DNA of 54,982 nt, counting the filler, from Stramenopiles sp. TOSAG23-3 (lineage: Eukaryota): assembly GCA_900128585.1 (NCBI GenBank). It is 4 parts of 4 records of this genome, joined end to end, with 100 filler letters (N's around TTAATTAATTAA, not from the genome) between each part and the next. Parts side by side here need not be neighbours in the genome. Positions count along the whole stretch, not along the records: positions 25,466 to 50,690 come from LT642291.1; 3 more parts are not named here. The stretch is one strand, 5' to 3'. Both the position numbers and the translations under genes were made by a program. Positions 27,992-30,163 of the stretch are shown piece by piece. Numbering within the stretch: the first letter of the stretch is position 1; every line of letters starts with the position of its first letter. The notes beneath the pieces are model-generated. The model made no database searches, had not been told where the DNA came from, and saw nothing but the letters and a program-made list of their open reading frames with translations.

Positions 27992-30163
27992 ATGCAGATA
28001 TTTGTGAAAACGTTGACGGGGAAGACGATTACCTTGGACGTCGAGCCCTCGGACACCATTGAGAACGTCAAGCAAAAGATTCAGGACAAGGAAGGGATCC
28101 CCCCCGACCAACAACGGTTGATTTTTGCGGGGAAACAGTTGGAGGACGGCCGAACGCTCTCCGACTACAACATTCAGAAGGAGGCCACCCTCCACCTCGT
28201 CCTTCGCCTCCGGGGGGGGTGCGGCATCGTCGCCTACCTGGGGAAGCGCCAGGCCGTCGACGTCCTTATCAAGGGCCTGAAGCGCCTCGAGTACCGGGGG
28301 TATGACAGCGCCGGGGTCGGGGTCCTTGGCCCAGGGAACACGCTCCAGGTATGCAAGAAGATAGGCAAGGTCAAGAACCTCGCGGCCGCCGCGAAGAGCG
28401 CCGAGGCTCAGCTGACCAGCACGATCGGGATCGCCCACACCCGGTGGGCGACCCACGGGGAGCCCAGCGACAGGAACTCCCACCCCCACACGAACGCGAG
28501 CGGGACCCTCAGCTGCGTCCACAACGGGATCATCGAGAACTACGAGACGATCAAGAAGCGGTTGCAGCAGAAAGGGTATACGTTTGTCAGCGACACGGAC
28601 ACGGAGGTCCTCGTCCACCTCGTCGAGGACGTTCGAAAGAGCGCCCATTCCTCGCTGACCCTCGAGGAGGCCATCGGCCTGGCCCTCTGCCAGGTCACCG
28701 GGACCTTTGGCGTCGTCTTCATCGACTCGGAGAACCCGGACAAGTTGATCGGGGCGCGGCACGGGTCGCCAATGATCCTTGGGGTCGGGAAGGAGAACGA
28801 CGAGTGGTTCCTCTCCAGCGACGCCGCCGCGATCATCGAGTACACGAACACCGTCGTCTACCTCGAGGAGGGGGACATCTGCACCTTGACCCGGGACGGG
28901 TACACGATCGGGTCCTTGCACACCACCCGGGAGTCGTACAACGCCTCCATGTTCCAGGCCCTCATGAACCTTGCCAAGGCCCAGGGGGACACCGACGAGC
29001 TCAAGCACAAGAGCAAGCAGCTCCCGGAGCACGAGCTTCAGATGAGCATCGCCGCGATCGAGAAGCAGGGGTACAAGCATTTTATGCTCAAGGAGGTCAT
29101 GGAGCAGCCCCGCGTCCTTGAGAACTGCATGCGGGGCCGCGTCGACGCCTCGAACAACTTCATCCGCCTCGGCGGCCTCGTCCACGTCATGGACAAGATC
29201 GTCGCCGCCCGGCGCTTCGTCATCTGCGCCTGCGGGACCTCCTGGCACAGCGCCCTCGTCGGGGAGTACCTCTTGGAGACCCTCTGCCGGGTCCCCGTCG
29301 AGGTCGAGTACGCGAGCGAGTTCCGGTACCGCGAGCCGATCCTCTTCAAGGACGACGTCGTCATCGTCATCTCCCAGAGCGGGGAGACCGCCGACACCCT
29401 CGCCGCCGTCCGGGAGGCGAAGCGCCAGGGGTGCCTCACCCTCGGCCTCGTCAACTCCGTCGGGAGCACGATCGCCCGGGAGACCGACGCCGGGGTCTAC
29501 CTCCACGTCGGCCCAGAGATCGGGGTCGCGTCCACCAAGGCATTCAGCGGCCAGATCTGCGTCCTCACCATGATGGCGCTCATGATCGCCAAGGAGAAGA
29601 AGACCCTCGAGGACCAGGTCATCAACGACTACCTGACCCACCTCCAGGCGATCCCCAGCGCCATCGCGACCGTCCTCGAGCAGACGGCCGTCATCCAGAC
29701 CATTTCCAAGACCTTTCGGTACGCGAGCAACTTCCTCTACCTTGGCCGCGGGTTCAACTTTCCCGTCGCCCTCGAGGGCGCCCTCAAGCTGAAGGAGATC
29801 TCGTACATCCACGCCGAGGGGTACCCCGCCGCGGAGATGAAGCACGGCCCCCTCGCCCTTATCGACCGGTTCATGCCCGTCGTCATGATCGCCCCCAGCA
29901 GCGACCCGACCTACGAGAAGACCAAGGCCAACATCAAGGAGGTCCTTGCCCGGCAAGGGAGCGTCATCGCCATCACGGAGGAGGGCAACCACGAGCTCGA
30001 CGCAGAGTGCGAGCACGTCATTTACACCCCAAAGGTCCCGGAGTGCATGCAGCCCCTCGTCACCGTCATCCCCCTTCAGCTTCTGAGCTACTACATCGCC
30101 GACCTCCGCGGCTGCTCCATCGACCAGCCCAGGAACTTGGCCAAGAGCGTCACCGTCGAGTAA
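27992..30163 (+). CDS. glmS: Ubiquitin-glutamine:fructose-6-phosphate amidotransferase (GlmS/GFAT) fusion
   Basis: 76-aa ubiquitin at 27992-28219 ([11 protein letters not shown]...LRLRGG), then [59 protein letters not shown] and the terminal [11 protein letters not shown]. Confidence 0.97.

Follow-up and report, generated by a model that had tools for sequence, protein, structure and literature searches.

A gene in which ubiquitin is fused directly to the catalytic cysteine of a glucosamine-6-phosphate synthase (GlmS) is encoded in the genome of Stramenopiles sp. TOSAG23-3 (assembly GCA_900128585.1). It occupies positions 27992–30163 on the plus strand of a 54,982-nucleotide stretch of that assembly, to which we refer in full as the window. 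The same in-frame junction recurs in three diverged lineages, and its codons indicate that it is kept by purifying selection and was not created by mis-assembly. We consider it likely that deubiquitinases (DUBs) remove the ubiquitin, probably constitutively and co-translationally, which would yield a GlmS starting at Cys1 together with one free ubiquitin.

Structure of the fusion gene

The open reading frame (ORF) has 723 codons followed by a TAA stop codon (30161–30163). It is intron-free and contains no internal stop; all coordinates of the gene given below refer to the plus strand. The start codon is the ATG at 27992, and no in-frame ATG occurs between the preceding stop and this position. 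The ubiquitin coding part (27992–28219) comprises 76 codons and ends in LRLRGG, with CTC CGG GGG GGG encoding L73, R74, G75 and G76. It is followed by TGC (Cys77, 28220–28222) and then by GGC ATC GTC GCC TAC (GIVAY), so that the protein reads CGIVAYLGK from this point on. At the junction (28217–28222), the GGG codon of Gly76 thus abuts the Cys codon, with neither a linker nor a Met in between, and the predicted DUB cleavage site presumably lies between 28219 and 28220. This is the arrangement that the initial annotation had described, namely one intron-free ORF with TGC at 28220 right after Gly76 and no linker or Met; our translation agrees with it and the coordinates are correct.

The first Met within the GlmS part lies far downstream, inside the glutaminase domain. 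Since it is so deep in this domain, and since there is no upstream in-frame ATG, no Met-Cys start is available to the enzyme. The junction residue is Cys and not Pro, and it is preceded by a single complete N-terminal ubiquitin with its GG intact. A run of eight G residues (28212–28219) spans codons R74-G75-G76 directly 5' of the junction. When the junction peptide is written as a degenerate DNA pattern, the window contains one match, and 0 of 100 shuffled versions contain any.

The ubiquitin part matches human ubiquitin at 73 of 76 residues (the differences are E16D, A28Q and S65A). Pfam PF00240 is matched on residues 3–74 with an E-value of 8.7e-32 and 109 bits, against a cut-off of 25.4. 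In the translation we found K6, K11, K27, K29, K33, K48, K63, L8, I44, H68 and V70 in addition to the LRLRGG end; the seven lysines and the L8/I44/V70 patch are what we take to be key ubiquitin positions. By its sequence, the domain is a true ubiquitin and not a ubiquitin-like domain.

The remainder of the protein is a GlmS. The NCBIfam model TIGR01135 (glmS equivalog) matches residues 77–723 over its full length (profile positions 1–607 of 607) with 762 bits, against a cut-off of 418.05. As this match opens at Cys77, the enzyme part begins exactly at the Cys. In agreement with this, Cys77 aligns to Cys1 of E. coli GlmS (1jxa), and the alignment runs through to the C-terminal KSVTVE. The glutaminase domain (28220–28906) is of class II, the N-terminal nucleophile (Ntn) type, and begins with the catalytic Cys; it is matched by GATase_6/7 in Pfam and aligns to residues 1–220 of the E. 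coli GlmS domain chain 1xff. It is followed by an interdomain linker insertion of about 27 residues (residues 312–338, 28925–29005, as placed in the alignment display) and by the isomerase domain (residues 351–723, 29042–30160), which has two SIS stretches (PF01380, E 2.9e-58), aligns to E. coli GlmS 238–608 and has the C-terminus NLAKSVTVE.

The positions on which activity should depend are preserved in both domains. Identical to E. coli GlmS are Arg26, Arg73, Trp74, Thr76, His77, Asn98, Gly99 and Asp123 in the glutaminase domain, and Ser347-Gln-Ser349, Thr352, Lys485, Glu488, His504 and Lys603 in the isomerase domain, all of which we presume to be catalytic or substrate-binding. A search of the PDB returned E. 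coli GlmS with 526.6 bits and human GFAT1 with 497.5 bits.

Conservation of the junction in three lineages

When the whole protein was used as query, the best 120 matches were mostly polyubiquitins, and three of them were 723-aa fusions with 100% query coverage. These show 100% (P0019), 88% (P0041) and 86% (P0043) identity to the protein from the window. With the GlmS part as query, the same three proteins rank at the top and are the only 3 of the best 120 with a ubiquitin Pfam entry; across the three fused lineages, the GlmS part is 85–100% identical. Their 90% clusters have 12, 32 and 5 members, respectively, contributed by JGI, ENA, NCBI, Logan and EukProt. All eight junction-spanning representatives or members that we inspected (P0019, P0041, P0043, P0240, P0245, P0252, P0253 and P0266) have the same junction peptide. 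In metagenome contigs, the junction pattern was found at three loci (L001, L002 and L003), each with an ORF of 723 codons. L001 and L003 belong to one lineage (99.6% identical), and L002 represents another.

The lineages have diverged strongly at the codon level. Between them, 347–557 of 647 codons and 88–119 of 647 residues differ in the GlmS part. In the ubiquitin part, 41–55 of 76 codons differ between lineages, and the number of amino acid differences is 0 of 76 in every pair of the four loci; one of the cluster representatives, P0043, has a single ubiquitin change (G53D). Conservation this strict is typical of true ubiquitin and suggests that the released molecule would be used as ubiquitin. 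The GC content at third codon positions (GC3) of the GlmS part is 0.95 in the window, 0.78 in L002 and 0.25 in L001/L003. It can be seen from the latter value, obtained for an orthologous fusion, that codon usage has shifted greatly among related lineages.

The codons around the junction (marked by a slash) read CGG GGG GGG/TGC GGC ATC in the window, CGT GGC GGG/TGT GGT ATC in L001 and CGC GGC GGG/TGT GGC ATC in L002, with R74, G75, C77 and G78 preserved via synonymous changes. The two other lineages are in frame and have no homopolymer at this point (CGT GGC GGG and CGC GGC GGG), and the reading frame is therefore not an artefact of the run of eight G in the window. For most lineage pairs, synonymous sites have reached saturation (pS >0.75), which limits dN/dS to two comparisons: 0.12 for the GlmS part between the window and L002, and 0.09 between L001 and L003, the latter from few changes.

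Of 24 listed sequencing runs, 20 contain the stretch. They come from 11 studies; six are RNA, and two rows are possibly the source sample. Three RNA runs and one independent DNA run were mapped as assembled contigs, and a contig was counted as bridging the junction if it extended at least 31 letters to each side. One RNA contig, from an oligo-dT library (X19 record 1, 28115–28283, three differences), and one DNA contig (X3 record 11, 28181–28416, one difference) bridge the junction, both without gaps. A further RNA contig (X7 record 25, 27955–28185) covers the 5' leader (27955–27991) and most of the ubiquitin part with 0 differences, and another one (X6 record 21, 28211–29812) reaches 9 letters before the junction and was excluded from the bridging count. 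The bridging contigs show contiguity, and they are consistent with expression.

In the three RNA runs, depth is zero at 27750–27923, and the DNA run X3 covers 27837–27923. The ends of the RNA contigs scatter, with 27955 and 27991 on the 5' side and 30231, 30238 and 30279 on the 3' side. Two apparent joints within the GlmS part (29109>29259 and 29557>29827) were each seen in a single contig, with short sides and 7–8 mismatches, and were taken as GlmS of other organisms.

The initial annotation had argued that a codon-exact junction reflects selection rather than a chimera, and had proposed to look for genomic and RNA sequence across it as well as for other Ub-Cys-Gly junctions. The argument holds up: the identical junction is found in three diverged lineages, in three protein clusters and at three metagenome loci, and one contig each of DNA and oligo-dT RNA spans it.

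The stretch is found in runs from marine or seawater metagenomes and metatranscriptomes. EukProt holds a 92-aa fragment across the junction that is labelled 'Stramenopile-MAST_4_protein_6549' and whose GlmS residues match the L002-type lineage. With moderate confidence, we consider the host to be a marine heterotrophic stramenopile of the MAST-4 type.

Origin and distribution of the fusion

Among the best 120 matches to the GlmS part, the nearest after the fusions is an unfused metagenomic protein (P0122, 72% identity, 652 aa) that starts with MCGIVAYQG. It is followed by proteins from Cantina marsupialis (P0123, 60%) and EukProt (P0134, 58%). The next ~110 proteins are 606–640 aa long and 58–62% identical, and those with a name come from Rhodothermales or other Bacteroidota. 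Cantina marsupialis is the only named organism outside the Bacteroidota in this set, which includes no named canonical eukaryotic GFAT.

We calculated a quick maximum-likelihood tree from 39 of these 120 sequences (81 were left out and no eukaryotic GFAT was included) after removal of the ubiquitin part. In it, the three fused clusters group together (SH-aLRT 99), with P0122 as their sister (96). P0134 (88) and the Cantina protein (55, weak) branch outside the fused clade and P0122, and monophyly of all eukaryote-type sequences, including these two, receives 55% support. A bacterial ancestry of the GlmS part is likely from these relationships. In the simplest history, a single event in the common ancestor of the three fused lineages turned an unfused Met-Cys gene into the fusion. 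The stramenopile lineage would first have acquired or retained a bacterial-type glmS, which would then have gained the interdomain linker insertion; ubiquitin would have replaced the Met start after that.

The distribution of the linker insertion can be followed in the 17 alignment rows displayed. The fused clade and the unfused proteins P0122 and P0274 have it, a looser version of it is seen in P0123 of Cantina marsupialis and P0134 of EukProt, and the five bacterial-type rows as well as P0127 and P0145 lack it. Eukaryotic GFATs carry regulatory sites in the interdomain linker region.

P0122 and all more distant relatives start with Met-Cys. Given that this holds even for the nearest unfused relative, ubiquitin would be a substitute for processing by methionine aminopeptidase (MetAP) and not a necessity.

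Three other unfused metagenomic proteins of the bacterial GlmS type (P0127, P0145 and P0442) combine a Met-Cys start with eukaryotic-looking insertions, which are either low-complexity and Gly/Ala-rich or very long and Ser/His-rich. Several protist lineages may thus carry a bacterial-type GlmS. P0442 had drawn attention as a fusion candidate by a suspicious offset, and it was rejected upon inspection, as it starts with MCGII and has long low-complexity inserts.

To find other fusions of ubiquitin to Ntn enzymes, we used a junction pattern that needs the exact peptide HLVLRLRGG and allows any partner starting with CGI, CGV or CGM. With this pattern, metagenome contigs gave only the three Ub-GlmS loci, and viral contigs and prokaryote genomes gave 0 matches each. 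The DNA locus of P0019 (JGI) is not among the matches, which means that the metagenome DNA collection is incomplete. A search with the GlmS part against 1.84 billion cluster representatives gave 41,635 matches at E<=0.001; the best 150 are 424–648 aa long, too short for an additional ubiquitin. At just 53% identity for the best representative, the cluster with the fusion must be concealed behind a different one. From these narrow searches, which covered metagenome contigs, viral contigs, prokaryote genomes and cluster representatives, the fusion looks confined to one small clade.

Proposed maturation of the fusion protein

In class II amidotransferases, the N-terminal Cys is the nucleophile (PMC7948480). 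For GlmS, this Cys is imperative at the N-terminus, where it is usually exposed by deformylase and MetAP, the latter being able to remove a Met that precedes Cys (PMC11822699). Natural linear ubiquitin fusions are cut co-translationally by several DUBs right after Gly76, whichever residue follows, with the exception of Pro (PMC3692480).

Taken together with the structure of the gene, this suggests the following course of events. The primary translation product would be inactive as a glutaminase, because Gly76 precedes a Cys that must be a free N-terminus and the ORF has no Met-Cys start. DUBs would cut after Gly76, most likely in a constitutive manner, during or just after translation, like they do with polyubiquitin and the ubiquitin-ribosomal fusions. 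The cut would yield a mature GlmS starting at Cys1 and one free functional ubiquitin. In other words, ubiquitin would stand in for Met and MetAP. The initial annotation had likewise made the enzyme dependent on DUBs instead of MetAP. This is right in so far as the GlmS part has no other route to an N-terminal Cys, but it goes too far if a necessity is meant, since the unfused relative starts with Met-Cys.

Several points weigh against our reading. The cleavage, the mature N-terminus and the enzyme activity are all deduced from sequence, and the advantage of the fusion is unproven, as the unfused relative obtains its Cys1 without ubiquitin. Gene conversion from other ubiquitin genes could explain part of the absence of amino acid changes in the ubiquitin part. 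A single RNA contig bridges the junction with the required overlap, and the RNA evidence consists of assembled metatranscriptome contigs, whose libraries can contain DNA. One of the 12 members of the window's own cluster type (P0241) is out of frame in the ubiquitin part and re-enters the frame at the run of eight G (GGGC); this shift is probably an indel error at that run. Finally, the MAST-4 name of the host goes back to one source label, that of the 92-aa fragment.

How the fusion is processed is one matter, and why it exists is another. The benefit may be a gain in expression or folding or an accompanying supply of ubiquitin, ideas that have been put forward for the ribosomal fusions. It may also be that there is no benefit: a ubiquitin that came to lie upstream in frame could have been costless and then become irreversible, because losing the ubiquitin now means losing the start codon. 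We regard such a neutral entrenchment as possible rather than probable. It would fit with a single origin of the fusion and with the Met-Cys starts of P0122 and the remoter relatives, which imply equivalent mature products. It would also fit with the lack of an obvious protective benefit. In humans, NatA has little activity towards N-termini that begin with Cys-Gly (a D3G mutant lost activity, and the (M)CGD N-terminus of CHURC1 was 0% acetylated), and ADO, which oxidises Cys, makes poor use of those of GFPT2 and ASNS (PMC11199558). The idea that ubiquitin spares Cys1 from co-translational acetylation by NatA is weakened by these data (PMC11199558). However, the GC3 of the fusion gene is the highest in the window and may mean high expression, and the ubiquitin part is as strictly conserved as true ubiquitin, which suggests that the product is used; both of these observations are indecisive.

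A different proposal concerns the processing itself. The inactive precursor might persist until a specific or conditional DUB releases GlmS, so that flux into hexosamines (UDP-GlcNAc) would be gated by DUB activity or the ubiquitin pool. Such a regulated zymogen is favoured by the location of Cys77, which rules out glutaminase activity before the cut (PMC11822699), and by the retention of the fusion in three lineages; in addition, feedback control of the kind found in eukaryotic GFAT may be missing from the bacterial-type enzyme. On the other hand, linear ubiquitin fusions are cut co-translationally by several DUBs except before Pro (PMC3692480), and there is no feature at the junction that would slow down cleavage. 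We therefore think the proposal unlikely. Since cleavage of this kind is a rapid and general reaction, maturation is more likely to be constitutive than regulated, and a regulatory role for the ubiquitin cap is unsupported. The initial annotation had viewed ubiquitin as a pro-domain cut at Gly76; of this, the removable pro-domain is supported by the sequence, but the regulated 'activation' is less favoured than constitutive maturation (PMC3692480). In its most far-reaching form, which is speculative and in our opinion doubtful, ubiquitin would be an encoded zymogen cap by which DUB activity switches on the committed step of UDP-GlcNAc synthesis, one-to-one with ubiquitin supply. More broadly, ubiquitin fusion might then be a recurrent means of domesticating bacterial enzymes that need an exact N-terminus, such as the nickel superoxide dismutase (NiSOD) discussed below and GlmS.

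Many proteins bear N-terminal ubiquitin-like domains that are not cleaved. The ubiquitin of the fusion could in the same way be permanent, serving in proteasome targeting or partner binding, with an enzyme that acts as an isomerase only or uses ammonia. Weak Rad60-SLD and Ubiquitin_2 matches in Pfam overlie the ubiquitin stretch and would agree with this. We nevertheless hold it to be very improbable. The domain is a true ubiquitin that shares 73 of 76 residues with the human protein and has an intact LRLRGG end, and it shows 0 of 76 changes between the loci, whereas ubiquitin-like domains that stay attached tend to diverge and to lose their GG. All glutaminase positions that we checked are conserved, which would be pointless without a usable Cys1. 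Moreover, the junction residue is not Pro, and fusions of this kind are cleaved (PMC3692480).

An artefact, be it a chimeric assembly, a sequencing error at the run of eight G or a pseudogene, is hardly credible: multicopy ubiquitin does break assemblers, Logan contigs do fragment across the ubiquitin part and P0241 has its frame problem at the G run, but the same in-frame junction is shared by three lineages that differ in their codons there, the two besides the window being free of the homopolymer, gapless contigs from independent DNA and RNA span it, the ORFs are full-length and under purifying selection, and neighbouring genes are conserved in L002.

Genomic neighbourhood and base composition

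The window is intron-poor eukaryotic nuclear DNA that encodes, among others, an ASCC3-type helicase, an SNF2 helicase, a mitochondrial-type ribosomal protein S9, and EF-hand/MORN and TPR proteins. L002 is collinear with it over three genes, namely the fusion, the mitochondrial-type ribosomal protein S9 and an EF-hand protein. The products of the two neighbours are 55% and 42% identical between the window and L002. Identities this low indicate well-separated species with an orthologous locus.

The S9 gene (30333–31046, minus strand; 7363–7881 in L002 and 4118–4510 in L003) neighbours the fusion gene in each of the three lineages. It lies downstream and is convergent with the fusion gene in the window and in L002. 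In L003, it is found on the upstream side and in the same orientation, pointing to a local rearrangement.

Elsewhere in the window, a helicase fragment (40–3540, plus strand) has Sec63 and DEAD domains and is of the ASCC3 type by its best named matches. Its nearest relatives are environmental sequences (84% and 79%); the named ones, from plants and animals, are ~46–57% identical. With relatives this distant, the lineage appears to be poorly sampled, and the helicase matches do not narrow down the taxon. There are also two very long intron-free ORFs. One of them (4334–7876, plus strand, 1180 aa) has no Pfam match, and another (40171–45858, plus strand, 1895 aa) matches only SWM_repeat, which is associated with the flagellar system.

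Among the 18 long ORFs of the window, GC3 peaks in the fusion gene (0.93 versus 0.48–0.78), and GGG makes up 66% of its Gly codons. This top value may mark strong codon bias and high expression. GC3 is 0.78 for the downstream genes at 30333–31046 and 31885–34440, 0.72 for the gene at 46281–49247 and 0.48–0.59 for most others, and intergenic DNA has a GC content of 27–36%. Upstream of the fusion gene, long poly(T)/poly(A) tracts with runs of ~12–21 bases are located at 27740–27812, ~180–250 bases before the start codon in an AT-rich spacer. They may constitute a promoter or a nucleosome-free region.

Comparison with known ubiquitin fusions and related enzymes

The GlmS part of the fusion protein can be compared with bacterial GlmS enzymes. 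Those of Rhodothermus marinus (P0130/P0131, 61%) and of E. coli (1jxa, 2j6h, 4amv) match it over its full length, share the catalytic positions and the KSVTVE end, and fall under TIGR01135. They start with Met-Cys, however, and have neither the ubiquitin nor the insertion of ~27 residues, both of which are present in Ub-GlmS.

Other Ntn enzymes also have their catalytic residue uncovered by processing. In Bacillus PurF, glutamate synthase and the proteasome beta subunits, removal of a propeptide exposes the catalytic N-terminal residue. These propeptides are short, specific to each family and removed autocatalytically. In contrast, the extension of Ub-GlmS is a whole ubiquitin that is presumably cut in trans by general DUBs.

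The classical natural ubiquitin fusions, Ub-eL40 (UBA52), Ub-eS31 (RPS27A) and polyubiquitin, share with Ub-GlmS a complete ubiquitin with an intact GG and no linker, and DUBs cut them into free ubiquitin and the partner (PMC3692480). Their partners are ribosomal proteins or ubiquitin, the function of which does not depend on the chemistry of the exposed residue, unlike that of Ub-GlmS. They are also universal in eukaryotes, whereas Ub-GlmS is restricted to a lineage. The same principle underlies the ubiquitin fusion technique of the laboratory (Bachmair, Finley and Varshavsky 1986, per PMC3692480), in which ubiquitin is placed before a residue X and DUBs expose X. That technique is engineered and Ub-GlmS has evolved; for Cys, the trick would be unnecessary, since MetAP suffices (PMC11822699).

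Our full-text literature searches, which reached neither subscription journals nor supplements, returned no published description of a Ub-GlmS fusion. Judged by title, the literature that combines MAST-4 and ubiquitin contains no fusion paper. The main text of the paper by Sibbald et al. (2019) on the Ub-NiSOD fusion genes of marine algae lacks the words glucosamine, aminotransferase, amidotransferase and GlmS (PMC6332867). The Ub-GlmS sequences themselves are public, annotated merely as aminotransferase. Within the literature searched, Ub-GlmS seems to be the first example from nature in which a ubiquitin is joined straight to the catalytic N-terminal residue of an Ntn amidotransferase. It adds an entry to the short list of proteins that are naturally fused to ubiquitin and can be seen as an evolved counterpart of the laboratory technique. 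The conserved junction also provides a simple sequence marker for this uncultured clade of marine bacterivores in metagenomes and metatranscriptomes. If cleavage is constitutive, the fusion would be an evolutionary curiosity, an instance of a principle already known and not of a new one in regulation.

The closest described system is one in which the exact N-terminus matters as well. NiSOD needs a precisely processed free N-terminus, where His1 forms part of the nickel hook. Given this need, removal of the ubiquitin from the Ub-NiSOD of marine algae would have the same maturation role as in Ub-GlmS. The initial annotation had already named the Ub-NiSOD fusions of algae as a conceptual parallel. 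Like Ub-GlmS, Ub-NiSOD consists of one N-terminal ubiquitin and an enzyme that presumably came from bacteria, and in the trees of both, the unfused forms are nearer to bacterial sequences (PMC6332867). In two algae, ubiquitin was found with many partners, including actins, ribosomal proteins and bacterial-type membrane proteins (PMC6332867). The two systems differ in distribution, as Ub-GlmS belongs to one small clade of heterotrophic flagellates and Ub-NiSOD is found in many phototrophs (PMC6332867). They also differ in chemistry, since Ub-GlmS would expose the Cys1 nucleophile of an Ntn amidotransferase and Ub-NiSOD a metal-binding N-terminus. Together, they suggest a rule: where an enzyme of bacterial origin depends on an exact free N-terminus, a eukaryote can take it over by putting it behind a ubiquitin.

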